A stretch of 63,193 nucleotides of DNA, counting the filler, from Hausera hauseri (taxonomy: Eukaryota), in assembly GCA_046269625.1 (NCBI GenBank). It is 11 parts of 11 records of this genome, joined end to end, with 100 filler letters (N's around TTAATTAATTAA, not from the genome) between each part and the next. Parts side by side here need not be neighbours in the genome. Positions count along the whole stretch, not along the records: positions 4,916 to 13,655 come from JBJURY010548785.1; 10 more parts are not named here. The stretch is one strand, 5' to 3'. Below the pieces are notes generated by a model. It ran no database searches. It was not told the origin of the DNA and saw only the letters and a program-made list of their open reading frames with translations. Numbering within the stretch: the first letter of the stretch is position 1; every line of letters starts with the position of its first letter. A program made the translations under genes and the position numbers. Shown here piece after piece: positions 2,329 to 54,746 of this stretch.

Positions 2329-4235
2329 CAGTGCTTTCCAACCGTGGTCCACAGAGAATCTCAGGGGATCCACGAAAGATTTTTTTAAATGTTTAAAAAT
2401 ATTAGGGTTTTGAGAACGTAAATTTGATGGGAAGTTAAACTGAGCAATCCCTAAATTTCAAATTTCGCGATCGCTTTGCTCGTGTATATATCAAATTTTG
2501 AACTCGATTCCTGGTGATTAAAAAAGTGGTGTTTATTTTTGGTAAATATGTCGGTTTATCTGATATTGGCTATTTAATCAATAAATTTTGCATACATCAG
2601 ATGAATACCTCAGCATTTTCAAAGTCAGCTTCAACTTCCTCGGCAGTAGCAAAGAAACGTAAGTATCAGGCTGATTACTTGAGATTTGGTTTCATTGAAT
2701 TTGAGAAAGATAATTCGCTTCCTCTCTGCTTGGTTTGTTTCGTTGTTTTGACTAATGATTCAATAAAGCTAGCGAAACTGAAGCTGCATTTGGAAAAGAA
2801 ACATCCCGGCCTTAAAGACAAGTCGAAAGAATATTTTGAAGCTTTGTTATCAGCTCATCAGAAACAATCCAGTAAAATGAAGAAATTTACGTCAACATCT
2901 CAGCAAGCTCAGATCGCAAGTTTCAAGATTGCTCAACTGTTGGCGAAGAAGAAGAAATCTCATGCAACAGCCGAGGAGATTGTCTTGCCGGCGTTAAAGA
3001 TTGCTGCTGAGTGCATGCTATCAAACGAAGCTGTTGAGAAATTCAAGACAATCCCTTTGTCAAGCCAAACGATCACAAGAAGAATCCAGGAAATGTCCAA
3101 TGATATCAAGACTCAATTAGTAGAAAACTTTGTCGATGGTGGAGCGATCAAACTTTGGGCTATCCAGGTCGACGAGAGTACTGACATCAGTGGAAAGGCG
3201 CAGCTTTTGTCATTCATTCGATTTGTCAAAGACGGAAGAATCATCAGCGAGTTTTTCTTCTGCTGTGAGCTGAAACAGACGACTACAGGCAAAGATATTT
3301 TCAGTCTCGTAAATGATAACGTCAAGGATTTTGGATTAAAGTGGGAAAATTGTGTCGGCGTATGCACTGATGGAGCTCCTTCGATGCAAGGTCGAAACAA
3401 AGGTTTCATCTCGTATGTCTGCCAACAAAATAAGAACGTCAAGATTGTCCACTGTATGATCCACCGAGAAGTTCTTGCCGCCAAATCCCTTCCTCCAGAA
3501 CTTCTGACGATTCTCGATGAAGTTGTAAAAGTTGTCAACAAAATAAAAGCGAATCCGCTGAGATCAAGACTTTTCGCTGCACTCTGCGACGCAATGGATT
3601 CGGGTTACCGAGGCCTATTATACCACACAGAAGTCCGCTGGCTTTCAAAAGGAAAGGTTCTCAACCGCTTTGTTCACATGAAGGTTGAAGTAATTTCCTT
3701 CACCAACTCAGAAGACATAAAATTTGATTTCTTGGAAGACGACATTTGGTGGCTGAAAGTCTCTTTTTTGAGCGATCACTTTGATAATCTCAACGCAGTC
3801 AACTTGGGTTTGCAAGCAGCTAACGAAAATTTCATGTGTCTTATGGGAAAATTGCAATCATTTCAAGAACAGATTGTGCTGTGGAAACGAAAAGTGATGA
3901 ACAAAAACTTCAAATCTTTTCTTACAGTTGATGAGAATCCTTTGAAAGCAGAGATCAAGAATGTGATTGAAGATACACTGAAACGCATTTTTGATTCATT
4001 CAAAAAATATTTTCCTGATCAGGATGTGTCTGGAACGGAATGGGTTTTAAACCCATTTATTGTATGTGACACCAATCTGAAACCAGAAGTCAAGGAAAAT
4101 TTGATAGACCTACGAAACGACGTCGTCTTTAAAAATTTGTTTTCTGAAAAAGAGCTCTCTGAATTTTGGATCTTGTTGCATGAACAATATCCCCTGCTTG
4201 CAAAAGAAGCATTTAGCTTCTTGTTACCGTTCTGC
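2329..4235 (+). mobile_element. hAT Buster/Charlie-like DNA transposon, 3' truncated
   Basis: Left TIR CAGTGCTTTCCAACC at 2329 preceded by CTCTAGAA (NTCTAGAN-type target); no right TIR seen. Confidence 0.85.
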
Positions 4236-4271
4236 TACTTTGAACTTATAGCTAATCTTGTAAGATTCTAA
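2601..4271 (+). CDS. Buster/ZBED5-like transposase lacking the end of the dimerization domain
   Basis: RKY..DYLRFGF, P.C.VC, LKLHL..KHP (BED-like), DESTD, CTDGA, HCMIHRE, HTEVRWLS.G; breaks off after LLPF where STYLCE is expected. Confidence 0.9.
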   Translation: MNTSAFSKSASTSSAVAKKRKYQADYLRFGFIEFEKDNSLPLCLVCFVVLTNDSIKLAKLKLHLEKKHPGLKDKSKEYFEALLSAHQKQSSKMKKFTSTSQQAQIASFKIAQLLAKKKKSHATAEEIVLPALKIAAECMLSNEAVEKFKTIPLSSQTITRRIQEMSNDIKTQLVENFVDGGAIKLWAIQVDESTDISGKAQLLSFIRFVKDGRIISEFFFCCELKQTTTGKDIFSLVNDNVKDFGLKWENCVGVCTDGAPSMQGRNKGFISYVCQQNKNVKIVHCMIHREVLAAKSLPPELLTILDEVVKVVNKIKANPLRSRLFAALCDAMDSGYRGLLYHTEVRWLSKGKVLNRFVHMKVEVISFTNSEDIKFDFLEDDIWWLKVSFLSDHFDNLNAVNLGLQAANENFMCLMGKLQSFQEQIVLWKRKVMNKNFKSFLTVDENPLKAEIKNVIEDTLKRIFDSFKKYFPDQDVSGTEWVLNPFIVCDTNLKPEVKENLIDLRNDVVFKNLFSEKELSEFWILLHEQYPLLAKEAFSFLLPFCYFELIANLVRF

Positions 4272-4815: not shown

Positions 4816-4915
4816 NNNNNNNNNNNNNNNNNNNNNNNNNNNNNNNNNNNNNNNNNNNNTTAATTAATTAANNNNNNNNNNNNNNNNNNNNNNNNNNNNN
4901 NNNNNNNNNNNNNNN
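4816..4915. other. Artificial contig linker (44N-TTAATTAATTAA-44N); same linker at 13656, 19174, 23516, 27848, 33985, 41642, 47141, 52369, 58991
   Basis: Identical 100-bp structure ten times; the core puts stop codons in all six frames. Confidence 0.97.
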
Positions 4916-4984
4916 TGAATTTCCTGACTTTATATTGGCTCTTTATTGATTTAACTTTGAATTAAATTTAAACATTAATATTCG

Positions 4985-5066
4985 TTTAAATTTCTCCTCA
5001 CAGCATCAATTCAAATAAATCGAGGGTGGGGTAGGTTTTTTGCCAAGACTCATTTTACCACTACTG
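4985..5066. repeat. Dispersed repeat end, copy 2 (ends CCACTACTG)
   Basis: Similar to 85-165. Confidence 0.55.
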
Positions 5067-5819
5067 TAGTGATTATGATATGCCGGGGATTTGGGTTATT
5101 AAGGGCCGGATTTGCCAGATTTTGGCTAACATTCATCTTTGGATGTATAATCATAGATTTACGCAATAGAAAAGAAAAACTGACAGACATATTTAAAAAA
5201 TTGATTTATAATCACAATTGTCAAATTTGTATTCTTGTATAAATCTCAGCAATTAAAGGATTCTTTTTCCTGAAGTCTTTTTATTCCGAAAAATGTGTGG
5301 GACAAAAATTCCTTTTGGGGATATATATGCAGTGATGCCATTCAACTCGACTTATTTTGGTCGAGAATGGCACCTTGAAGTCAGTATAATTTATTTGAAA
5401 TCAGATTATATTGTTGAAATCCATTTAAGTTCGATACCAAATCCAGCACTACATTGGTGTCAGAAGCACTGCGGCACATACAGTCCAGGGTCGGCTGTGG
5501 TTCATCTGGAATTCCAACAACAAACGAACTATGTAAGTTCGATTATTGTTACTAAAGCACCCGGCAGCATTTTTATGGCAGTTTTTTTATCTGTCATCAC
5601 TTTTGAGGCTTTATAATAAATTCAATATGTTCTGTTGCGTATATTTTTCCTGTATCAGTCATTTGGAAGTATTTTTGGTATTTTTTATTGTACGTAAGTT
5701 TTAAATCCAACAGTCGTCTGTGTAAAGTTTTTAGAAATATAATGCATCTCGTGTTCAGCAATACTAACGATAGTCTCGAAATTTCTCTTTATCGAACCCC
5801 ATTCGAAATCTCTTAAAAT

Positions 5820-6610
5820 TCAATTGTTTTGCAGCAGACATTAAGTGAAATTGGCAACGTTGGTAATGATACCTATAAAGCGTTGGAAAAGACGTTTGAT
5901 GTCAAATACATAAGGCATTACCGGAATTCTGTTGTACAAGTGAGACAGGAAATGGCTCATAAGAAAACTATGTTATACATGGAAAGAATTATTATTCGTC
6001 ATCAGGCACAGAGATCGTACAAATAATAAAAAACTTAATATTGGAATTAACATTTTCTTTGAAAATAAATCCAATGCCGTAACGTTAATGCAGTTTCTAC
6101 AAAATCATTTGTCATTAAAATATTCAAAGTCGAAATAATTGGAATCACCAATATGTACAATCACAAAAGTACGTACTCTGTCGAAATTCCGGCAGTTCAT
6201 AAAGATGATCTAGTTTGTTTAACGAAGACTTGTACCCAACAAATAGGCATTTTGGATCTATTGTGTCTTACGTTGAGAATTGCCAATCAAAACCATTTGA
6301 TTGATCTGTTAAGGGCAAAAATTCGATACATTGATGCGACCGCCTATATCAACAACCATTTTTCTGCCAGTGCACCAACTCGTAATTTAACTGAATTTCT
6401 CGTCCATAACGTTGCACTCTTCCCACCACAAAAATCCAAACAGGGTGATTGTCGTGTGTCAAAAGATCATTCATTGTCTGATCCACACGTTTTACGATCA
6501 ACTGGTATGCAAAAGGAAATTCAAATTACATTACATTTAAGAAAGCTCTTAAAGCTCGGTAGCTTGTTTATGAGATATGACTTGCGTTGTTTTACTGCAA
6601 CAATGACGTT
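5820..6610 (+). pseudogene. NMD3: NMD3 (60S export adaptor) fragment with stops and frameshifts
   Basis: VVQVRQ...HKKT.LY.E.II, YN.KSTYSVEI..V.KDDLV.L, THL-like ITLHLRKLLK.G. Confidence 0.8.
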
Positions 6611-7410
6611 CTTGACGGCATAAGACTGTCTTGCTGCTATGTCGGTATGATGTTCATTAGTTTCTATTGGCATCTTGAAGACTACAGGAGCTGCTCTACT
6701 AACTTTTTGCACTGGGGAGAGCCAAATACATGGTACGGTGTATCTAGCGAGAATGTCGATCAATTTGAAGTAGCAATGCCAAAGCAGGCACCAAAATTTT
6801 TCGAGAATCACGAAACTTTATGTCATTACATTACGACTATCATGAACACTAATATTCCAATGTTGGAAGGTTTTCCTATCTATCACACTAATCAACAAAC
6901 TGGACAGCTTGTCGCCACATTTCCTCAGGTTTATCATACTAGGTTTCACCAGGCTTTTAATTTTGATAAACCCACAAATTTCAGCCTTACAAATTGGCTA
7001 CCAATGGTGCGGTCCTGTGTTGAACAACTTGTTAGACTTCACCAACACTGTATCATCTCATATGAAGAATGGTTGTGCACCAAAACTGAGTAAGAAACGC
7101 CACCTAACGGTCAAGTACGGCACAAATATTCTCTACCGTCTGACCTCAACATCAATCGTACCTATACATATTTGAACGCTAACATTCGTTGGACAGTGTA
7201 TGCAGAACATGATATCTTCGTGGAGGAAGAGAACGTGAAAAGACCACGCCTAGCTAAATTCAATATGAAGAACCAAAGAAAAGTACTCCTTGAAAATTTG
7301 GCAGACAACGAGCAAGCCTGTGCATCATATCAAACAACATGTTTTCTATCAGCGATTCAATATTGCTGTACCAAGGACAAAACGAAGGTAACAAAGGCTT
7401 GCTATGCATA
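6611..7410 (+). pseudogene. KDM5: KDM5/JARID1 fragment (JmjC to C5HC2 zinc finger)
   Basis: YVGM.F.SF.WH.ED....NFLHWGEP.TWYGV, G..V.TFP..YH..F..FNF, L.D.E..C....TTCFLSA; possible decayed intron starting GTAAGA at about 7090. Confidence 0.85.
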
Positions 7411-7616
7411 AGAAAGACATAGTCTGGTTTATTTGCAATATGTTGATGTAATGTTTTCTACCTTTGTACCCGAAACATGCGTAACGTCTGTGGATAAATC
7501 CAAAAAGACTATCAAAAACACTTGGCCAAAAATTTTAATACAAAATTCGATCATCCGAAAGATATATTAAATAATCAAAATTCGGCGCCGATTTTTACCA
7601 GGCAATCGAATGCCAC

Positions 7617-7975
7617 TGTGACGGTTGGGTTCTGCGACAGAGATGCCTTTACCCCGGTGTTTCGTCGCAGTTGCAGCGTGACCGAGGCACTGACTGTTCA
7701 CCCAACGGCCGTGGAGCAGGCGGCACAACGCTCGGGGTTACCACGCCACGCCTTAGGCACTCACTCGCCCACTGTCTTTTCATTTTTCTTCCAGAACAAA
7801 TATATACACATATATTACATGCACACAAACCGCACTACACCATCTGTATTCTCTTGTCACAAAGAACCTTTCCTTCAAAAACTTCTTGCATCTCAACGGT
7901 TTCATTCTTCAACCCACAGACGACTCACCATATACCACGTGTTTCCAATCTTCTCTTCACATAATAACCGTAACA
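7617..7975 (+). repeat. Probable 5' LTR (or its R/U5 part) of gypsy element 1
   Basis: TGTGACGGTT...AACCGTAACA terminal inverted repeat (9/10); followed by a PBS-like motif and gag. Confidence 0.65.
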
Positions 7976-7986
7976 CCTCGCCTTCT

Positions 7987-8004
7987 TGGTGATTCTGACA
8001 TTAA
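7987..8004 (+). promoter_or_regulatory. Degenerate primer binding site, tRNA-Trp-like
   Basis: TGGTGATTCTGACATTAA resembles the tRNA-Trp PBS TGGTGACCCCGACGTGAT; correct position between LTR and gag. Confidence 0.5.
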
Positions 8005-11000
8005 TCCAGATACTTAGGAGCATAAAAAGCTTCACTCATACACAGTCATAGTAGCAAAATCACCTTCCAACTCCTCGACATTCCAGTGTATCGATTTTTT
8101 TGGACAGCCAAAACTCCCCACGGACTTGGCTGGACTTGCATGCTCGTTGGCTAAAAGCGCACAATCTGACATATTCTTTCTTAAAACACAATAGTCTTAT
8201 TATTTACATTCCTTCTTCTTTAAGATTACGTTTACCAAATCTTGCTGATATCTTTGCTGCAGGGGACCTTTATAACTCCTTTACGCCGCAGTTCTAAAGC
8301 TTACTAAACCAACTATCGATGAAATAATTCAAAATTTCTTTAATGAAAACGCATTAGGTCACACCAAACCGTCCGAATTTCTTCGCACATCCCTTTTACT
8401 CTCGTCACTCTGTGTGTAACTCATGACCACAATGCTGATCGCTTACGTCACTACTTTCTCCAATTCCTGCCGAAAGAGATCAAGACCATGCTTACTGTCG
8501 TTGAGAACATTGCCTCGCTGTAAAAATTAGCCCAATTGGCTGATATAAGCTTTGATATACTACATACCCAAAACTGACCCAGCATTGCGGCAGCACTCAC
8601 AACATCAACAACTTACAATCAACATACAATATGGAATATTGACAATCAGCTGCAATCATTATACGCCGAAAACGTTGCATTAAGGCAAGCTATTACAGCA
8701 ATAACAGAGAAACTGAATCAAGTTACAATGCCGCGCAGATCTTTTTCTGGTAATCGACAACTCCCCACCAGATAAAATGGTTCTTCGCGCAACAGTTCTC
8801 CTGTATACGAACAGATCTGTTTTTTTTATTCCAAATTTAAACAACCCGCCAATAAATGAGGCATAGGATGCAGATTTTATATTCAAAACTTTGCATCAAA
8901 TGAAGTCGTCTGCGTTTCTCACAATAAATTTCGCGACAACGCTCGAAAAAGCCTACTAGGCTGTAAATTTTACAATTCTTCGGCTCAGTTAAACTTACCA
9001 ACGCATTCAAAAAACTAACAATATCATCAGAAGTAACGGCAACTTCTGGTCAAAACGCAAACGCTTCATTAAACATCCGTAACGCATTCTTTGCTGTCTT
9101 TACACTGCAAGCTACCATTACGTCCAAAAGTTCTTCCATCTCCTTTCTCACTGACAGTGGAGCTGTAGTGTCACTTCTTCCTATTTCTTATGAATCGCAA
9201 AATTTTCCTTCAATCAGTAAATCATTATTTATTGCCAATGATGATCCGTTGCGCTCCATTGGCACGGAACATCTCTCTTTTTCTCTGTCCAATTTTTCCA
9301 AACCTTTTTCTTAGAAATTCATTATAGCAAATGTACAAAGTCCAATCCTTGGATCCGATTTTCTTTCACACTACAATTTGTTAGTTGATTGCAGACGGCG
9401 TCGTTTGATGGAGAGCTCATACTTTTGCTCTAAAGTTTTACCGGCTTCGAATATTTTGAACTCAATTTCATCAGAAAGCCATTTTGCGATTGACAACGAT
9501 TTAACTCAATCAATTACTAAACCTGACATAAAATCAATTTTAAAAAGTGTCAATGTTCGGAATAATTCATATAATCGGATTTCGACTGTTGAGAGTGGCT
9601 AGTCTTTCGCTTCCAATAATATAACACCAAACCAAACCACCTCAGCCACTGACAAACATGTGTCAACATCCCATTTATCTTTCGGCCAATTATCAATGGA
9701 TCTGCAAACATTTGTGACTACGCAATGTCCAAGAATTCTCAAAAAAGACCCATGCTTTAAATATCCCTCCAAAACATTTCACCAGTTACCACTCATCAAC
9801 GTCCAATTCGGCAAAAAGTGTGACCTCTTTCACCACGTCGAAGAAAAGCCGTTTCAAACTTTAGAGAACGCTGGTATCATCAGACGTTCTAAGTCACCTT
9901 GGGCTTCACCGTTACACGTCGTGCCCAAAAAGGACGGCACTTTCAGATCTTGTGGTGACAATCGCCAACTAAACACTAACGATCATGGACGCATACCCCC
10001 TGCCACTGATCAATGGCATATTGCACAGACTCCATGGCAAAATAATCTTTTCGTCCATCGATCTCCACAAGGCATATTACCAAATTCCAGTCTCTCCCGC
10101 TGACATACCGAAAACGGCTGTGATAAAACCTTTCGGCATTTTTGAATATGTTTACATGCATTTTGGCCTTCGCAGTGCCTTACAGACATTCCAAAGGCAC
10201 ATTGACACAGTTCTGGCTGGCCTAGACTTTGCTTTCTCATATATAGACGACATTCTAATCGCTTCATCATTATCCAAACAGCATGGAGAACATTTGCGAA
10301 TAATCTTCCAGCGCCTGCACCAGAACAACCTTAAAGTAAACTTCGCCAAATCCTCTTTTTTCCAACATAAGATCAACTTTCTTGGACATATTATCATCCA
10401 ATCTGGCCACTCTCCCCAGCAAGACCGCATCACTCATCTCAGAAATGTCCATTTACCACGCACATCAACAGAAATGCGCTCTTTTCTCGGGACGCTTCAC
10501 CTCGTGCACAAATATGTGCCTCACTGTTCAACACTCACGGCACCATTCGCCTCACTCGGCTCCGGTAAAAAGAAACAGCTGACTTAGTCAATTCTTTTGA
10601 ATACCTCAAAGATAATCTAAAAACTAGAAATCCTTGCATACCTTGGTCCAAACTCGGAACTTTTCTTAACAACGGACGCCTCCACAACAGCAGCAGGTGC
10701 AATATTGAATCAATTTAAAGACGGTTCTCATCAACCTCTTGAATTTTTCTCAAGACAATTCACAAAAGTTAAACAACGTTATTCAACTTTAATAGGAAAC
10801 TTCTTGCAATGGTCCTAGCATTAAAACATTTTAAACATCTGCTAATATCACGCACATTCATCATCCAAACGGACCATAAGTCCCTACTTCATATTCTCAC
10901 AATGAAATCTCCATCTCCACGTCAGGAGAGACAGATATCGTACCTCTCAACATTCGCGTTTGGACTAAAACACATTTCAAGCTTTCATAATTTCGTGGCC

Positions 11001-11982
11001 GATTTTTTGTCGCGTTCCGTCGACTCGATCACATTTGCACCCATTTTTGACAACGAGTTGCTCAGGCGGAACCAGCCAGACGACTGAATCATTGATGGCA
11101 TAGCTTTTGACATTTCTAATCGTGGATCTACCAAAATTATTCAATCAGCTTCTTTGCAAAAAACTGCCTTCACCAATATCCATTCCTGGCATCATCCCGG
11201 ATCCAAAGCTACTTATCGCCTTCTTAAACGCAAATTTATATGGCCATCAATGAAAACAGATGTACAGGATTGGGTTAGGGAGTGTGAGGCATGTCAGAAG
11301 TTTAAAATAGCCAAACATCTTAAGCCTTCACTCTATCATTTTCCCTGCACATCACGTTTCGACACCATCCACATCGACATAGTCGGACCTCTCCCACTTG
11401 ACAACGGCCATGAATTCATTCTTACTATGATGGATCGTGCTTCTAGATGGTCAGAAACCGTTCTACTTTGCTCCACCAACACTGAGACTATTGCAGATGG
11501 CTCAACAGATTCGGCTCACCTAAGCACGGAATCACTGATCAAGGCTCTCAATTTGAGTCGAATCTTTTCAAATCATTAGTAAATCGACTGGGGATCAAGC
11601 ATATTCACACAACACCTTTATCATCCTCAGTCAAATGGACTACTGGAGCGTTTTCATCGCACGATGAAAATCTCCCTTAAAATATTACCAGACTCCAGTC
11701 AACACTGGGTAAATCTTCTTCCTTACGTTCTACTTGGATGGCGTAACACACCATCCACAACCACTGGCTGCTCTCCGTCCGATGCACTCTTTGGTACACG
11801 AGTGCGTGCATTGTTCGAGTTAGTGGAGTGCGATGAAACACCGACTGACGAAACAATCCATGCTGCACAAGAGCACTTTCTGGCCCTAAACAACAATTCA
11901 TTCTGCTGAAACAAGTTTTAATTTTTAAATATTGTTTTTTGTTTCGACTGATATTTATTGAAAATGCGTTTATTGGAGTTAG

Positions 11983-12225
11983 CAGTGGCGGATTGAGGGG
12001 TAGCTGCCCATGGCACAGTAGGCAGTGGTGCCCGGAAAATTAGTTTAACTCACCATTACAGAATGAATAAGAAGCTGAAAATGTTGTTCAAATATGTACC
12101 GATCTATAAACTATAAATATTGATGGTTGCAGTTTGTAGTAATTATGCAGGAATAAACTAGTAATCACCGATGGTACTGGTTGTTATTTCTGTCCAGGAC
12201 AACGATTTCTCTGGATCCGCCTCTG
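11983..12225. mobile_element. hAT-type MITE
   Basis: TIR CAGTGGCGGAT / ATCCGCCTCTG; imperfect 8-bp TSD GGAGTTAG / GGAGTCAT. Confidence 0.75.
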
Positions 12226-12956
12226 GGAGTCATACAGATTTTTGCCTCAGTTTCAGCAGTAGCGTTTTTTTTCAGCAGCATGGGATCTTACCTCCTGTTA
12301 AAAGATGCTCCAAAATGACAATGCTATAAATATCAGTCTAAGCGATTCCAGAGATAGATGGAGATGTAGAGTTAGGGAATGCCACGATGATATTCCTTTG
12401 AGAAAAGATACCACATATTACCGTAAATTTCTGTATCTGAAACTGCGAAATTGATTGTGTAATAAGAATTGGTTAATTACGATATACAGTAAGTTCCCAA
12501 TATGAATCTTCGCCTTTACGGCACTTCTGACATAGGTGGTTCCCAATATAAAATTTTTACAATTTAAAACGGCAGACGATAGATCCGATGAAAAAAAATT
12601 TAAGTCAATTTCCATGGAGGGGGGGGGGTACATTAACTCCATAAACCCCTCTCAGTACAGCACTGGCCAGTATGATGATCAATGTATCACGGCAAGTGCG
12701 TCGTCGCTCTCGTACAACAGAAATATTATTTGCAAAACAAAATATTCCATAATCGTAACAAAAATTCGAAAATTACAATTTCAGAATAAATTGAAAATGT
12801 CCAAGAGGGCATGTTTCATAAAAAAATTAGATCTTATTATTTCACAGACAAGCCAATAAATCTAATACATTCACAGACAACGAAAATAATTGATCAATAT
12901 AGAAAATCATCAAATATTTAAAAAGAACCACCATTAGAATATTCATCAAACAAATT

Positions 12957-26271: not shown

Positions 26272-26371
26272 TGTGGTGCCCACAGCGGCCGGTGCCCTTT
26301 GGCCCATTTGGTCGGGCACGGCCGGGCATCCGTTGCCGCCGTGTCGGACCTATAGTCGGGCCCGTTTCTTC
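26272..26371 (+). mobile_element. TGTGG GC-rich element, copy A
   Basis: TGTGGTGCCCACAGCGGCCGG...CGTTGCCGCC...GTCGGGCCCG; aligns with copies B, C, D. Confidence 0.9.
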
Positions 26372-31297: not shown

Positions 31298-31619
31298 GTC
31301 GATTTGCGCGACCTGAGTGGTAAACATTAGAAAAGGCGTCCTGTTTGGTTGATGTTTGACGTCGCTTTCCTGTAAACTTGGTAAATGTCTTTCCATAAAT
31401 TTCTTCTGCATCGATTCAGCCGGAATATCTCCGACCGACGATGTAGTACTGGGATGTTTACCACTGGCATTAAGGTAATTCTGGGGAAATTGTGAACTGT
31501 TGTCAAAATACTAGTCAATCAATTCTTCGGATAAAATTTTATATGTTAATAATTTAGTAGATTCATTAACATATGTATGACAGAAATATGACAAATTCAC
31601 TGACCTTTTTATGTATACT

Positions 31620-32200
31620 TTTTAAATCTTCTGAGACTCCAATGATAGACTCCGACAACGGTTGACATAATAATGCATGGTAATTGATGAAGAAATCAGG
31701 GAAATCGTGCAACAATAAGAACGTTGTACTGACAGCGCTCTTGTAGACTATTTGAATAAGTTTTTGTAGGTGATTATCGAGATACGGATGTAGAAATGAG
31801 AATGGATTGCAAATTGCTTGTAGAATTCCTGTGTGTATTCCATTGTTGTACTATAGAGCACTTTGGAAATGAATGATCGATGGGAAATGAGTTCTAACCA
31901 TAAGAATACTAATGATGGAGCACATTTTGGTCTTCTGACATTAAAGGTATGTGCGAATGCAGTCAAAGCATGATATTGGAACTCGACCATTTGTTCGTCA
32001 TCAACAAGGTGATGTCTATGACATTCGTGAATGAGACTACATACTAACATTGCATAAGCATCAATTTCCATATATCCGGCACTACGGTTTGCTATGAATG
32101 ATGATTTCAATTGTTTATGTGCTCTATCAACAACGTACATTAATGCTAATCGTAGGAATTTCTGAACGACTTCAGCGATGATACTCGTTAAACCATCTGT
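31620..32200 (-). pseudogene. CNOT1: CNOT1 C-terminal domain fragment
   Basis: IDAY..LV, AF...F...RP...P...F.WLELISHR.FI, LLLHDFPDF...YH. Confidence 0.8.
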
Positions 32201-32849
32201 GAAATATTTATTCTTTGCTTTGCCATCTTTGCTTAGGTCGCTTTCAACATTGACACTTATGAACTTTCATCAGATAAAATACGAGCAGTATTATCGTCAC
32301 TAAGTGCTACAGGTGACAGATTCATGATGTCTAGATCACTAAGTGATTTACTCCAACTATCATTCATTGCATATTCATTTCTCTTTACTATTCCAGTGTA
32401 CTTCGCATATTCCTATACTTCAGCCATTTTCAATTCACTGACACTCACATCGCTTGACTTGAATCTGGATCTTTTCGTTGCTCTGCTGTTGATTTTCGTC
32501 GATTCCGTTTGTAGGTAAAATTCCAAGGACCGACGACTTCCATAAATATTCAACGAGGAGGGACTAGCGCGCATGGCAACGAGTTCTTCACAATAAATTG
32601 TCGGGAGTCGTTTGCAATGTTTGGAAATTTTTGAAACAGATTGTTTTATCACTGGACGATGAAATTTGGCGATACGAGAGCTTTCCTTGAGAGATAATTG
32701 TGAACCCTTGTTTCTATTTCTATTAGACTTAATTAACTCGACGGTGTACACCTTATCGTTATTCACGTCATTCATGGCCATGTAGAAGATTTCATGTGGT
32801 GCTATTTTACAACCAATTCGTTCAACTCGACTAATTAAATCAGTTTCGT

Positions 32850-33390
32850 CGTTTCCTATTTCTCGAAATAAGTTTCTCTGACAGACTCTTAATTTTTTTG
32901 TCTGGAACCGTTTATCAATCATCTTTTTTTCAATATCCCCATCGCAGTATGTTTCGTCCTTTACGTGCAATGCCGATCTATTGGAAAGTTTATATTCGGT
33001 GACAAACTGCTTCTCGGATTTCGTATTGAAACTTTCATAAAATGATGGCATCTTACTAATAGAAAATGGATCTAACGTATGAAATGCATTGTCGTCCCTT
33101 TCAATACTTTCAACATTACTCGTTTCCTATTCGTCGAAATAAGTTTCTCTCACAAACTCTTAATTTTTTGTCTGGAACCGTTTATCAATCATCTTTCTTT
33201 CGATATCCCCATCGCAGTATGTTTCGTCCTTTACGTGCAATGCCGCTCTATTGGAAATTTTATATTCGGTGACAAACTGCTTCTCGGAATTCGTATTGAA
33301 ACTTTCATAAAATGATGACGTCTTACTAATAGAAAATGGATCTAACGTATGAAATGCAGTGTCGTCCCTTTCAATACTTTTAACATTACT
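32850..33390. repeat. About 270-bp tandem duplication (2 copies)
   Basis: Units start cgtttcctat at 32850 and 33121; the same peptide SFYESFNT.SEKQFVTEYK appears in two ORFs. Confidence 0.92.
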
Positions 33391-33544
33391 CGAACTATGT
33401 AATACGTAATCTTGGTCACCATCAGATAATTTCTGGTAGTGTATTAAATATTTTGACGGTACAGATTGACGATTTTCTACCTCAACAGACATGATAGTAC
33501 CAGTCACCTGTCTGCCATATCTAACGAAAGTCGGTACACTATAT

Positions 33545-33984
33545 ATATCTTGACCTAACGAAAACTCCTTTGACATCTGAAACCGACAAGACAATTTTGA
33601 ATTAGATGCTGTAAGTTCCTGACTGGTAGAAAATTTGTTTTGTCGTGGAAAGAGACGAAACTTGTTTAGACTTGTTAAAGGAACATCTAGATTTGTGCAC
33701 GATGTTCCTTTATCAAAATCATACACGTCGGTATCAGACAACACAGGCTTAACACGAAATTTCTGTGCGAATTCCTCATACTTTTCCAAATCATTTGAAG
33801 TTTGATTTTTTTTCTGTAAAATGAATTCCGTTAAATTATCAATGTTATCGTTACGTGGTTCGATGATTAATCTTCGAGCAAGGAACCAATAGGTATTTAC
33901 AAATCGGTCATAACCCAACGGAGTTTTCTTGTGTTCCACCAGAGCTTTTTCTCCATCTAAATTACTTTCGTACAATCCGACAAC
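33545..33984 (-). pseudogene. BPTF: BPTF/NURF301-like fragment, fused downstream to a chromo/Tudor-like piece
   Basis: PLGYDR....YWFL.RR.IIE and F.LGQ motifs; then KYLIHY at about 33435-33455. Confidence 0.6.
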
Positions 33985-34929
33985 NNNNNNNNNNNNNNNN
34001 NNNNNNNNNNNNNNNNNNNNNNNNNNNNTTAATTAATTAANNNNNNNNNNNNNNNNNNNNNNNNNNNNNNNNNNNNNNNNNNNNTACTATCGAAAATTAG
34101 TTGGAAACCGTTGAGATGTTTCTTTCCAAATTCTTCTGGAAATTTAAAATTTGGAAGCGCCCCCTCCCCCCTAAAATGAGAGCGTCGCCCTACATTTCTT
34201 CTGAAATCCATCTCGGAGCAGGATTGAGTAAATATTTCAACTTATGTGTACCACCCGCAAGTAAATATAGCCATTCCGCCATATCAATTTTTCTTTTCCG
34301 AAAGACTGACAAACATAGGAATAAAGACTGAATGTGAAATAGTCGTTGATATTGTCAATTCTGTCAGTAGGAGCTTCGGCTTTTGCAGCATTTTAATACC
34401 ATTTTGGAAAATGTTCAAAAACCATTCCAAAGACTGCTGATACATTGGATCTATTTTAGCCAAATCGGAAACAGTCTGACACCAACACGTATCTATTTTA
34501 CCATGCTATACATTTAATAAAAATAATATTTTGCTATCTTCATTTGTCTAGGCACTATAAAAAGCTGCAGATATCCATACATTTAGACATTTACTTACAG
34601 CTAAAAGACTTTTGCGAGTTTCATTTATAGCTCTCACCATTTCCATTTTGTTCCTCTGTAAAGTGAGCATTGCAGTAGTAAAACATTGGTAAAGTTTAAT
34701 CATATGTCAGATCATTTACTCATAGTTAATGATATTACAATCTGACTACCTCTTGAGTGTGTGATTTACTTCATTTTAGTCTCCATTCATCTAGTTTGGT
34801 TTATTTTAGTCAAACGGTCAATGTCATTGCATACTACAGCCAGAAATGAATGCTCCAGTGTCGTTCATTATGAATAATCTCAACTCGGTGCATGAAATCC
34901 ATTGCATCAGCAAGGGCCCCCTTCTGTTG

Positions 34930-35939: not shown

Positions 35940-37427
35940 TTAACTCATCATGCCATCGTCTTGTAAGAAAACCTCCATCTCTCCACTGGAACTCTTCACA
36001 CAGCACAGTTTAATATCATTAAGAGAAATATGAGAATATATAAGGTCATCGTCTCGAAGGGTCAACGTTTCGTCTTTTAACTTAGACACGATTTTATCCT
36101 TAATCTTCTGGGGTAATGGAAGCTTGCTCACTCGTTGATCTCGACCGGGATGTATGCCAATTGCAGATGATACTGTCATAAATGTCAGCTGACAAAGTGA
36201 CACTGGTTGTGAAGAAATGTCATTCATTAATGTTATCAAATCCTCGTTTTGATAACTTTGAACAATGCTTCTTACAATGAGCTTCTTACAGCTCGTCCAG
36301 GACATATCAGATACTGTCTTTAAGTCATTTTCGCTGAGGTAATATGCCAGTTCTACATTCCCAGCTAGTAATGCCATACATAAAGGGGAAATCGAAAAAT
36401 CTGTTTCCACCACATCTCCTGTCAAAACTGTCTTTGCCTGTACATCAACAAGTGGCATTCCAGCTCGAACTAATTTCAGAATAACATTTGTGTAACCTTG
36501 AAGGATTAGTTTATGCAGAATGATTGGTTCAAGGAACGATACATCAGCACCTCGATCCACAAAGCATTCAATGCAGTGGGCAGTATCTCCACCAATGTAT
36601 GGGTTCTCTAGGAGATACGAAAGAGCGGATTCTGTTTTGTTTATTTGGTTAACAGCTTTAACATTACACCCTGCATCAAGTAACATCAGCATTGCTTCTT
36701 TCCTGCATTTTTTAGCTGCCAGCATCAAAGGAGAGTAACCATCAATGTTCTGGCAATCCAGGTCACTTCCTGCACTAATCAGCTCTGTCAGAAGTGATGG
36801 TAATGGAAATGTAAATTCCAAAGCGCGCATTAAAGCGTTGTTACATTTGATATCTTTCACATTAACATCAGCGCCTGCGGTTATCAGTTCTTCTATTAAT
36901 ACGTAATTGTCACTATCCACAGCATACATAAAGGCTGTGACTCCCTCGATGTTTTGCTGATTAATATACTCCTTGCTCTTGGCTCGTTTAATTAAAAACG
37001 AAACGTTACTGTAACAGAAATGCTTCACTGCCAGCATGAGAGCCGTGTCTCCATTGACATCTTTGTCATTCATTTCAGCCCCATGGTCTAGCAGAATCCG
37101 CAACAACTCCACGCTGTCATCCCTAGAAGCTGCTATCATTAAAGGAGTTTCCAGATTTTGACTTCTTTCTCTGACTGACGATCCAAGTTTTAGCAAAGAT
37201 TCAACTCTTCTTCCTGCACAACGGTCGTATCTGTGTATCGTCTTTAGAAACTCAATCATAGACAGGGGACAGACGATGCTATTTCTTGTCACAGGACTGA
37301 TATCTGTTGTGACAGGAAACTCTTCATATTGCATCTTTATCAGAGATAAAGAACAACATTCTGGCGCCAAGTAACCGCTCTGAGCTGAAGGCTTGTGTTG
37401 ACTTTCTTGTGAGATTTCAAATTTCAT
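35940..37427 (-). CDS. Ankyrin-repeat protein with C-terminal SOCS-box-like motif, single coding exon
   Basis: 495-aa open frame; TPLMIAA, G.TALMLA, G.TAFMYA, GYSPLMLAA repeats; SLCQL....V......V.KLPLP..IK. Confidence 0.85.
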   Translation of the reverse strand: MKFEISQESQHKPSAQSGYLAPECCSLSLIKMQYEEFPVTTDISPVTRNSIVCPLSMIEFLKTIHRYDRCAGRRVESLLKLGSSVRERSQNLETPLMIAASRDDSVELLRILLDHGAEMNDKDVNGDTALMLAVKHFCYSNVSFLIKRAKSKEYINQQNIEGVTAFMYAVDSDNYVLIEELITAGADVNVKDIKCNNALMRALEFTFPLPSLLTELISAGSDLDCQNIDGYSPLMLAAKKCRKEAMLMLLDAGCNVKAVNQINKTESALSYLLENPYIGGDTAHCIECFVDRGADVSFLEPIILHKLILQGYTNVILKLVRAGMPLVDVQAKTVLTGDVVETDFSISPLCMALLAGNVELAYYLSENDLKTVSDMSWTSCKKLIVRSIVQSYQNEDLITLMNDISSQPVSLCQLTFMTVSSAIGIHPGRDQRVSKLPLPQKIKDKIVSKLKDETLTLRDDDLIYSHISLNDIKLCCVKSSSGEMEVFLQDDGMMS

Positions 37428-38844
37428 GTCGATAGTTTTTGTAGTTCACCTGGTTCGAAATGAAATAAAAGTAAAGAATTTAAAACAAAAATAAAATGAC
37501 GTGTTGATGTAATTCTAAAATTAACGTAAAAGATTCCTTGTATAAAGTTGCCTTGCTAAAACTGTAGCGAAAATTGACAATGAAATACCAAACTGGGTAG
37601 TAGCAATAGATGTCAAAGAAATTAAGTAATGATCCCATTAATGACTAAAAGCGCAAAGAGGAATGCTGAATTGGTATCCGCTCTTCTTCATAACCCAGCA
37701 TATGACTGTGTTATGTTGTCACCATACCGCCAATATGTTTTTACTTTCTACGAGAATGTCTCCATTAGCCAATATTTGAGGCTGGGTGGACCCCTGGAGT
37801 CGTTTTGGTAGAAACAAAATTCAACCCACCATAGCTGGGACTGAACCACCGACTAACCGATCGAGTGTGCACTGACCACTATCGACTGCGAGTACATGGA
37901 TAAGAAAGGAAACAAATGATACCCAAGCAGCAACACTAAAACAATTTATTAAGATGCTTTGACGGAATATCTCAAAATAGAATCCTTAAACTCAACTTGG
38001 AACAAAAAGTATCTACTAAAAGTGTCGACCAAATCAAGAAAAGAAGTTGGAAATAGCTGAGCTATATATTAAGGATGCAGAAATGAATACACCAACGGGT
38101 TGTTCTAAAACGGAATCCAGCGTGGAACAGAGCTAGTGGGCAATCTAGAGAGATTTTGAACTATAGTGACAGAACAGACAGAGACTGGTAAAACGGGTAA
38201 TGCGCTGAACTGACTTGCCCGTGGAAGATATGATTGGAGAAAATTAATTTATGCCTTACTCTTCAAGTGGATGTATGTGTTGAAGAAGAGGCTGCTACGG
38301 AAAGTCATTGTAGGAAATAGATTGTATTAGTAGAGAAGAGACATAAGGTTGGTGAGTGACATGCAATCTTACTGTTGATGAACATATATGGGAGGACTGC
38401 AATCTCAGATACATCAACTTCCATAATTTTAATTCCAATATAGATACAGTTTTTTTTCTGTATGGAAATGTGTGTGGAGGACCATGTTGATGTTGGAACG
38501 CATAATACAAACATTTGTAAATAATAGACTCGGACAAATACTGAAAATTATAACACATTTCACATTTCAAACATTGAAGACAGGAAAGAAATCTAATTAA
38601 AATTAAGTGAAAGAAACAAAAAGAGAACAATAACACTGGTGCCCAAGGAAAGAACAGAGTCGGGAGACCTTCAAAGAACCCAACACAATAAATATGTGTT
38701 GGAAAGACAAATGCAATGGATCGTCAGAAATGAACATCTACAGTGATTGTCTTATGTTTCGCCATTGGCATGAACAGGAAATACTGGAATAAATAGTAGT
38801 AGTAGCAGCAGTGGTGGCAGTAGTAGTAGTAATAGTAGCAGGCG

Positions 38845-43408: not shown

Positions 43409-43501
43409 AAATCTCGAGGCGGGAGATCGGGCCTGACGCGGCGGCAACGGATGCCCGGCCGTGTCCAACCAAACGGGCCAGAGGGCGCCGGCCGCTGTGG
43501 C
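43409..43501 (-). mobile_element. TGTGG GC-rich element, copy C (outermost about 7 nt missing)
   Basis: CCACAGCGGCCGGCGCCC...CGTTGCCGCCGCGTC.GGCCCGAT; directly follows the 3' UTR of gypsy 3 on the same strand. Confidence 0.9.
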
Positions 43502-47240: not shown

Positions 47241-48520
47241 AAACCAGCTAATAGAGAAATACTTTGCATAAAGGCTAGTCGGAAACTCCATTTTGAATCA
47301 TCGGCTAGTTCAATGATTGCAGGAATGAGATTTTGACTGGCCTGTTTGGCCCCAATTACTTAAGAAAGACAATCTAGTTTCGATATTAAATTGAGACGAA
47401 CCTCTGCATTTTCATCCTTTAATTGAGTAAGAAAAATTTGTAAAATATGTTCAGTTGTGCTGTATTTTTCAACAATTGGGGATAAACCTAACAAGACACC
47501 AGTAAGGCTAATTTTCAATTGAATATTAGGATCATTGATTATATCTTTCACGATTGGAATGAATGGCTTCACAGTAACGGATTTCCTAATGTCTTTTGGT
47601 AAACATTCACAAAAATCTTTTAATTTCCCAGCAGCAGCTGATTTCACTTCTGCTTGCGAGCCTTTCAACAGAATTGAATAAACATCGACTAGTGCGTTCT
47701 GGACCAAATCAGCGCCGATCAACTTTTAGATTTCTATTAAATTTTCAGTAGCAGCGTGTTGAACACGCCATGATGTATCTTCTGTGCCTCCACTAAATAA
47801 ATGTATGGCAGAATTTTTTATATCATCTTTGGGAAACACTTTGCAAAAACTAACACAAGAGGATACACCTAATTGTCTGAGAGAATCTTGCTCATCCTGA
47901 GCAATTATTGGTAGCAATAACAACATGTCGGATTTTACATGCTCCAAATCCATAGCGAAAACAAATTCACCAAGACGATAAGCAGCCGATCGCCGAACCA
48001 TAGGAATGTCGTCTTATGCCAACGGTCGAAAAAGTCGTCGTAATTCAGTTTTCAACGAATTCGGCAAACGTGCATAACAAACACTAAGTAAACCACAAGC
48101 CGATGATCGACTAGTAAACCATTCACCAGAACTCAAACATCGTATTAATGGAACAAAATGTTTTCCTAAATCCTGTGGAGTATGATTGGCAGCAATTATT
48201 TGGAGTGAATCCACTGCTTTATCACGTACCACAGTTTGTTCAACAGCAGCTGACGTTTCAAGAGGTGGCAGTAAACAATGCGAATATTCTGGACCACCAA
48301 CCAACGGTACAAATGCACCTAATTGTTCTGCTAATGCCAATAATACTTCATCTTCATCATACACAGTGTCTGTTAAAAACGGAATTAATTCGTTTCGAGT
48401 CCTTTCCATTCCAAGGGCCAACGCAACAGTAGGAAGCTTTTTAATACTTATTAATCGCGTTTGAATATCATCGTTTCTTAACTCATCGATTAAAACAGCA
48501 ATGGGAAAAAGATTATCGTA
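47241..48520 (-). pseudogene. PPP2R1A: PP2A scaffold A subunit pseudogene (HEAT repeats), no introns seen
   Basis: [67 protein letters not shown]; in-frame stops at about 48014, 47726, 47360. Confidence 0.92.
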
Positions 48521-49467: not shown

Positions 49468-49589
49468 CATCTTGTGAAATTTTCGCGGCGGGAAATCGGG
49501 CCCGACTATGGGCCCGACGCGGCGGCAACGGACGCCCGGCCATGTCCAACCAAATAGGCCAGAGAGCGCCGGCTGCTGTGGGCACCACA
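49468..49589 (-). mobile_element. TGTGG GC-rich element, copy B (122 bp)
   Basis: TGTGGTGCCCACAGC...TCGGGCCCATAGTCGGGCCCGA...ACAAGATG; outer end abuts pPolB. Confidence 0.92.
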
Positions 49590-53487: not shown

Positions 53488-53887
53488 GACGACGACGAAG
53501 ACGCTTAAAATGATCGCACAAATTACCACGAGCATATTCGGATTCACCGCAAGGAGTTGAGTCGGAAAAAATTTGAATTGAACAAATTCCGGACACTAGC
53601 ACATTTGGATTTACCGCAACTAGTTGAGTCGGAAAAATTTTGGACTGTCCCAGTTTCGGACATCTGCATATTCCGACTCACCGCAATGAGATGAGTCGAA
53701 AAAAAATTTTGAACTGATCCAGTTTCGGGCACCTGCATATTCGGACTCACCGAAACAAGCTGAGTCCAAAAAAATTTTAGACTAACCCAGTTACGGACAC
53801 CTGCATATTCGGACTCACGACAACTACGACGACGACGAACGCACAAATTTCCACGAACTCATAATGAGTACTACTACTACTACTACT
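53488..53887 (+). repeat. Probable Polinton terminus: 4.3 x 67-69-bp tandem repeat ending in (ACT)n
   Basis: Units start at 53532, 53599, 53666, 53735, 53803; (TAC)n run 53869-53887 fits the AGTAGT...ACTACT Polinton end. Confidence 0.7.
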
Positions 53888-54459: not shown

Positions 54460-54746
54460 ATACAATGACTGTTCCGTTTTCGTTATTTCAACCTCGGCAT
54501 CAAATACACCGTAAATGTACATCACGGTAGATTGCTCCAACGCTTTAGCAAAGTGAACCGCCTGTCGTAGGTTCCACTGCTAAAGTAGTTGAGTCTGTTC
54601 AACATCATAATCTGGAGCCAGGACAGACTAAAATCGACCGGTTGGTCCAAGTGTATGATAAACTGTTTAGCGGTATTGTCGTCATTGTCGTCGCCATGTT
54701 GTAATAATGATATGTTACTATCAAGTACCAAATAAATGCTCATCAT
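54460..54746 (-). pseudogene. Minor-capsid N-terminus joined by deletion to major-capsid C-terminus
   Basis: MSIYLVLDSN...NT..QF...L..P..F then VHFAKALEQSTVMYIYGVFDAEVEI. Confidence 0.55.

Follow-up and report, generated by a model that had tools for sequence, protein, structure and literature searches.

A multicopy, spacer-free fusion of NMD3 and KDM5 remnants in Hausera hauseri, possibly a chimeric retrocopy made by an LTR element

The window analysed here is a stretch of 63,193 nucleotides from Hausera hauseri, composed of 11 contigs of 4–9 kb that are separated by N44-12 nt-N44 spacers (4816-4915, 13656-13755 and eight more); the order of contigs across these spacers carries no meaning for genomic adjacency. 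Remnants of NMD3 and KDM5, two unrelated housekeeping genes, are fused end to end on an 8,740-bp contig (4916-13655), which also carries the following features.

4916..5066, no strand assigned: end of a very high-copy, MITE-like dispersed repeat (summed contig depth 79,322 in the bin 4916-5207)
5065..5453, plus strand: LTR-A, a 389-bp candidate 5′ LTR whose ends form a perfect inverted repeat of 7 nt; multicopy, with 4-14 contigs at variant sites in 5100-5269
5455..5466, plus strand: exact 12-nt match to a tRNA-Leu primer-binding site (PBS), one base past the ACA end of LTR-A
5467..5751, plus strand: leader, possibly a decayed NMD3 N-terminus with a T-rich GT..AG stretch; contig depth here (22) is the minimum for the unit
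5752..6610, plus strand: NMD3 remnant (human residues 90 to ~388) that has frameshifts and stops, is short of ~14 codons through a deletion, and has no insertion the size of an intron
6588..6619, plus strand: junction, with the crossover within 6608-6619
6611..7429, plus strand: KDM5 remnant, comprising JmjC without its first residues, the C-terminal helix, a flatworm loop and a decayed C5HC2 finger
7090..7158, plus strand: insert beginning with GTAAGA, 23 codons beyond KDM5B, containing a stop codon
7430..7616, plus strand: tail between the KDM5 homology and gypsy 1, with no poly(A) run
7617..7975, plus strand: candidate 5′ LTR of gypsy 1 (LTR-B), 359 bp, TG..CA, with a 10-nt terminal inverted repeat that is 90% complementary
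7987..7998, plus strand: degenerate Trp-type PBS position (9/12; the window holds 60 such matches, against 64 expected)
8070..11910, plus strand: gypsy 1, a decayed CsRn1-like gag-pol with reverse transcriptase (RT), RNase H and integrase matches, 3′-truncated within the integrase region
12957..13452, minus strand: Sm/LSm-family gene (Pfam LSM), apparently intact, with a 43-nt intron

A first-pass annotation of this DNA had recognised a JmjC remnant of KDM5, and this is borne out by two kinds of match. The reading frame 6581-7090 corresponds to residues 448-607 of KDM5A (E 3e-49), and 6611-7429 aligns with a profile built from 57 KDM5 proteins. The match begins at residue 360-427 of flatworm KDM5 proteins; no JmjN, ARID or PHD1 domain, nor anything else, was found upstream of it. 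KDM5 demethylase activity needs JmjN, and the combination of JmjN with a complete JmjC that marks an active enzyme was not found in the remnant. The four best relatives in a search of 1.84 billion proteins come from Dicrocoelium, Schistosoma, Schistocephalus and Taenia (48-51% identity), which makes a parasitic flatworm the most likely host; in a tree the remnant is nearest to flatworms, on a very long branch of unsure placement. At the four non-synonymous variant sites among those listed for this remnant, other contigs carry the residue that is present in 34-37 of the 37 references. A second KDM5-like match, at 5280-5400, was rejected with a score of 1.3 bits, under background matches of 6.6.

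The identity of the other half also stands, since the frame 6069-6620 corresponds to residues 233-381 of human NMD3 (E 4e-19), and frameshifted pieces upstream of it match residues 90-213 and 152-189. Homology is confirmed over 5752-6587 (836 nt, against 876 expected), so that the remnant begins at about 5752 and not at 5820, as had been annotated. One stop codon, at 6441, is common to all eight other contigs. A metagenome scan with the NMD3 of the window recovered no relative, word-based homolog searches gave no match, and a search of the Atlas yielded nothing usable. Whether NMD3 reaches further upstream depends on the reference used: the score of an anchored extension was matched by 16 of 40 nulls with one animal-like reference, and by 1 of 40 and 0 of 20 nulls with a three-sequence profile, while Pfam and PDB searches over the proposed extension returned nothing. 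A version drawn by eye to about 5430, with an intron of 120 nt, was discarded (score 29.3, against a null maximum of 32). On such an extension hinges the T-rich, 120-nt GT..AG stretch at 5639-5758, a second candidate intron besides the one proposed within KDM5.

NMD3 had been described as running into KDM5 with no spacer at about 6610, and the crossover indeed falls within 6608-6619, within three codons of that point. We compared the nine residues of 6596-6622 with a set of 29 distinct NMD3 blocks taken from metagenome loci: the first four fit the NMD3 register and the last four fit KDM5. The fit is obtained only at the offset predicted by a single base missing at 6592/6593, with a score of 9.2 that 2 of 5000 random 9-mers reach. 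This base is absent from the copy in the window and present in at least seven other contigs (four and three), where it puts the NMD3 and KDM5 parts in one frame; an in-frame join is expected by chance in one case out of three. The overlap zone 6608-6619 is compatible with both proteins and suggests microhomology, which we infer to have existed at the nucleotide level.

Copy status was assessed with contigs of one public run (0.62 of words) at 80% likeness. Near the Sm/LSm gene, one of these contigs matches the window without a difference for 556 nt. Summed contig depth, which is no copy number, is 2.6-6.3 over 12800-13655; it reaches 64-98 in NMD3 and 103-125 in KDM5, and is 79-84 from LTR-B into the start of gag. 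The repeated unit exists in divergent versions, with 18 variant sites in NMD3 and KDM5 among those listed (the best 40 of 1,929), each in 4-13 contigs. End distances at 6683 and 6693 would imply a non-identical contig that extends from 6494 to past 6890, and 1% of contigs run on unlike the window. Among the best 15 of 44 joints, at least three contigs are without 59-73 nt of the tail (joints 7510-7573, 7513-7573 and 7515-7589); joints 7335-7728 and 7784-7355, from one contig, were left out of the linkage evidence. The first-pass annotation had named multicopy status as a check, and would have given up its reading for a single-copy fusion with no spanning support. That case does not apply, because the chimera is multicopy and contigs of an independent run cover the junction. 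The fusion is real, multicopy and no artefact: in contigs of one run, a shared junction is found together with secondary amplification. Amplification went on after the NMD3 half had died, and the chimera is probably dead cargo.

A retained intron at about 7090-7170 had been proposed on account of the initial GTAAGA, with capture of DNA or pre-mRNA as its consequence. This proposal does not hold. No AG was found at the frame-preserving ends (66, 69 and 72 nt), and the insert has 46% GC and 20% T. The spacer between the C-terminal helix of JmjC and the C5HC2 finger, measurable in 31 of 37 references after three more had been dropped as too short, is 81 residues long in the remnant and 80-101 in five of five neodermatans; elsewhere it is 58-59 residues in 25 of 26 references and 79 in one unnamed protein. 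The insert is thus most likely, to judge from sequence comparison, a neodermatan KDM5 coding loop that contains a stop codon, rather than an intron, and it lends no support to DNA or pre-mRNA capture because it fits a coding loop. More generally, a lineage-specific coding loop can pass for a retained intron. No intron was found in the NMD3 and KDM5 spans (836 + 820 nt, ~1.65 kb), both of which are colinear with the proteins, and this favours an mRNA origin, the reverse of the earlier reading. For comparison, monogenean exons average 279-312 bp in the part of the published account used here (PMC10308649).

Upstream of the fusion, the geometry resembles that of an LTR element. The PBS at 5455-5466, which was spotted after the fact, is the sole exact match in the whole window, and one of 100 shuffles has one. 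Its 12 letters agree throughout with the Leu PBS given for Steamer in the consulted part of PMC8905726, the one element with which they were compared; a Leu PBS is also used by the tapeworm elements lennie and ta-TRIM according to the corresponding part of PMC4558846. At 34380-34500 on the minus strand, within a short exon that we take to be dynein heavy chain-like, there is a 10/12 match to the Leu PBS, by chance. An inverted partner like that of LTR-A is present at one of 24 ACA+TGG sites, against a base rate of 65/1003. Searches of the contig 4916-13655 revealed no partner LTR, polypurine tract, 3′ LTR or target-site duplication, and the copy of the fusion in the window appears 3′-truncated. 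A true LTR is expected to be over-represented in depth; that of LTR-A is 50, not above the 64-125 of the cargo. The weak NMD3 N-terminal signal crosses the LTR-A end and the PBS and, if it is real, the PBS is a chance match. The first TG of LTR-A could moreover derive from the dispersed repeat at 4916..5066 that flanks the unit, which has loose contig ends at 5002 and 5042 and resembles a repeat end at 120-165. We infer that LTR-A may be a genuine LTR.

Downstream, the annotated relation to gypsy 1 is confirmed on both counts: its RT lies on the plus strand, as does the cargo, and a gypsy said to start some 200 bp past KDM5 has its candidate LTR-B at 7617, 187 bp after the KDM5 homology ends. 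No 3′ partner of LTR-B was found on the contig 4916-13655. The gag boxes have CHCC spacing, with 2/4 and 3/4 ligands kept in gypsy 1 and two complete boxes in the related gypsy 2. Directly 5′ of the CsRn1-like gypsy 2 and co-oriented with it lie a WSD-domain fragment, a 270-bp tandem duplication and a C-terminal remnant of NOT1 (31460-33984, minus strand), a layout that echoes that of NMD3-KDM5 and gypsy 1; the 5′ regions of the two elements share no significant local similarity. A further housekeeping copy is found at 47243-48520 (minus strand), where 426 codons of the PP2A scaffold subunit (PP2A-A) align without gaps to the human protein, with three stops and no intron in 1.28 kb. From its sequence, this copy is likely a processed pseudogene, and it shares its contig with a remnant of a type-B DNA polymerase.

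The remaining contents of the window are diverse. The Sm/LSm gene, which we take to be LSm10-like, yields a 150-codon frame when its 43-nt GT..AG intron is removed, gave weak Sm matches in a PDB search and lies outside the repeated unit, at the depth of 2.6-6.3 that serves as single-copy baseline. A MITE-like insert at 11983-12225 shows, by eye, ends that are inverted near-perfectly over 11 nt and a near-duplication of 8 bp; other contigs carry different sequence at this place. A 589-codon frame at 2502-4271 (plus strand) combines DUF4371 with a Spin-doc-type zinc finger and is hAT-transposase-like, and four copies of a unit of ~68 bp form a tandem array at 53527-53820. On another contig, a single-exon ankyrin-repeat frame of 501 codons is open at 35943-37445 (minus strand), with a C-terminus that is presumably SOCS box-like. 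A GC-rich repeat of ~72 nt occurs on three contigs (26250-26330, 43429-43500 and 49510-49581), twice near polymerase remnants; as the copies at 43429 and 49510 recur near 26250 beside a polymerase remnant, their candidacy as an LTR was dropped. At 54697 (minus strand), downstream of an integrase remnant, ACA is directly followed by a PBS-like TGGCG motif, possibly reflecting tandem LTR elements. A LINE-type RT is present on another contig, and tRNA and Rfam searches gave no match.

Copying of mRNAs by LTR retrotransposons is known from plants, flies and vertebrates. We favour, with modest confidence, an origin of the chimera as a retrocopy made by template switching in an LTR element and amplified as dead cargo. 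On this account, NMD3 and KDM5 mRNAs would have been co-packaged with the RNA of a Leu-primed LTR element, and the reverse transcriptase would have switched template at the short similar stretch 6608-6619. A partial NMD3 would thereby have been joined to an internal piece of KDM5 behind an LTR and a Leu-tRNA PBS, in the usual place of gag. The non-autonomous unit would then have multiplied as a passenger, in many rounds of copying, and have decayed. Gypsy 1 would be a different, CsRn1-like element that has an LTR of its own, nested or recombined downstream in the amplified stretch. Both the template switching and the mode of amplification are presumed steps.

Several observations count for this retrocopy model: the exact Leu PBS, with an ACA end and a 7-nt inverted repeat 389 bp upstream; the partial, protein-colinear pieces, set against short monogenean exons and an intron in the neighbouring Sm/LSm gene; and the spacer-free join, with an overlap zone that fits both proteins. 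The multiple divergent copies, with the NMD3 stop shared by 8/8, are as expected of a dead passenger, and the intron-free PP2A-A copy with its three stops and the NOT1 remnant 5′ of gypsy 2 point the same way. Counting against it are the missing 3′ LTR, polypurine tract and target-site duplication on the contig, the depth of LTR-A, which is not raised, and the weak NMD3 signal over the PBS. In addition, the MITE-like repeat may be the source of the terminal repeat's first two bases, and the 501-codon single-exon frame indicates that long exons exist.

Some of these same points would suit an origin at the DNA level, in which a segmental duplicate or capture by a DNA transposon (of the Helitron, Pack-TIR or Polinton type) brought together intron-poor genes, a microhomology-mediated deletion joined them, and the block was amplified with the gypsy as a bystander. 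We regard this as unlikely, albeit the best of the alternatives. It would account for the missing LTR pair on the contig, the flat depth of 79-125 across cargo, LTR-B and gag start, and the MITE-like repeats at both ends; the weak NMD3 N-terminal signal with the T-rich GT..AG at 5639-5758 and the remnant of a type-B DNA polymerase that accompanies PP2A-A on its contig are also in keeping with it. It leaves unexplained, however, an exact PBS and a terminal repeat in LTR geometry, and it sits poorly with the lack of any intron in 1.65 kb of fusion or in 1.28 kb of PP2A-A, the sole intron proposed in KDM5 being a coding loop.

The first-pass annotation had instead made the chimera cargo of the same capture system; in this version it would be borne 5′ of gag by the CsRn1-like gypsy 1 family. 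Captured cargo is upheld by its multiple copies, but gypsy 1 is a doubtful carrier because the cargo lies 5′ of LTR-B and of the Trp-type PBS position, behind a PBS of Leu type. The cargo is upstream both of the 359-bp TG..CA unit and of the Trp-PBS position that a CsRn1 element would be expected to have. Gypsy 1 has in its favour the co-orientation, a depth that stays similar as KDM5 gives way to LTR-B and gag, and differently structured contigs that cross the tail to at least 7600-7628; the related gypsy 2 likewise has WSD and NOT1 remnants, in its own orientation, immediately upstream. Yet the 5′ regions of the two elements lack significant local similarity. We consider this version improbable.

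A chimeric processed pseudogene, made by a LINE or Penelope element through a template jump between two mRNAs and multiplied later by another route, is very unlikely. Depth climbs from 22 (5500-5791) to 125 (6960-7251), much as 5′ truncation would produce, and a LINE-type RT exists in the window; but no poly(A) remnant follows KDM5, the KDM5 piece is an internal one and does not represent a 3′ end, and a PBS is present. More speculative still, and at best a long shot, is an LTR system that captures housekeeping mRNAs repeatedly (NMD3, KDM5, NOT1, PP2A-A and the WSD gene), with the in-frame NMD3-KDM5 once or still an expressed accessory ORF whose JmjC would act as a decoy for H3K4 demethylation and aid escape from silencing. 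The in-frame join and the conserved KDM5 residues in other contigs (4/4 non-synonymous sites) allow such a reading; the one-in-three prior for an in-frame join and the NMD3 stop in 8/8 other contigs speak against it. A mis-join in a fragmented assembly, conceivable for a repeat-rich contig of just 8.7 kb, is hardly credible given at least seven contigs with the variant at 6592/6593, an implied contig from 6494 to past 6890, just 1% of contigs running on unlike, and a protein register that is continuous through the junction.

If the retrocopy model is true, a parasitic flatworm joins the organisms known for LTR-driven multi-gene retroposition, here with amplification of a chimera into many divergent versions. 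No new biochemistry is demonstrated by it. In fragmented assemblies of flatworms, dead multicopy fragments of this kind inflate gene counts and blur the orthology of NMD3 and KDM5. In the open-licence literature, at the level of titles and the start of abstracts, no report was found of an NMD3/KDM5 pair, of such capture in flatworms or of a transposon-borne JmjC.

Among known systems, gypsy 1 and gypsy 2 resemble the CsRn1 clade, and PwRn1 in particular (PMC2582038, in part), in gag boxes of the CX2HX9CX3C type, complete in gypsy 2 and kept in part in gypsy 1, in a candidate LTR of 359 bp against 381 bp in PwRn1, and in a Trp-type PBS position before gag. Gypsy 1 differs in being decayed and 3′-truncated, and the part of the PwRn1 report considered here mentions no host cargo. 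The Burro elements, giant gypsy elements of planarians, are likewise flatworm LTR elements with host-like domains, as far as the portion of PMC6431247 used here describes them; their domains lie within long intact polyproteins, whereas the NMD3-KDM5 cargo is broken and has a stop common to its copies.

The upstream end of the unit, where a Leu-tRNA PBS comes after a candidate LTR with TG..CA ends, is similar to that of lennie/Saci2 and the non-autonomous ta-TRIM of tapeworms (PMC4558846, PMC12471100) and of Steamer in bivalves (PMC8905726), going by the consulted parts of these reports; flatworms are known to have non-autonomous derivatives. In contrast to the NMD3-KDM5 cargo, the interior of ta-TRIM has no protein similarity in these accounts, and no gag-pol of the lennie/Steamer clade is found on the contig. 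The closest parallel to the fusion itself is provided by animal LTR-mediated multi-gene retrocopies and maize Bs1 (PMC5131818, in part), with two unrelated partial genes joined directly, beside LTR-element parts and with a shared junction that has been amplified; partial coding sequences of two genes joined in this way are what the locus contains. Flatworms are not among the taxa sampled in the part of PMC5131818 drawn on here. The retrocopies described there have element sequence on both sides and known parents, whereas here a candidate 5′ LTR and PBS stand alone and a second, unrelated gypsy follows. It is with these known LTR-mediated multi-gene retrocopies that we provisionally group the NMD3-KDM5 chimera.
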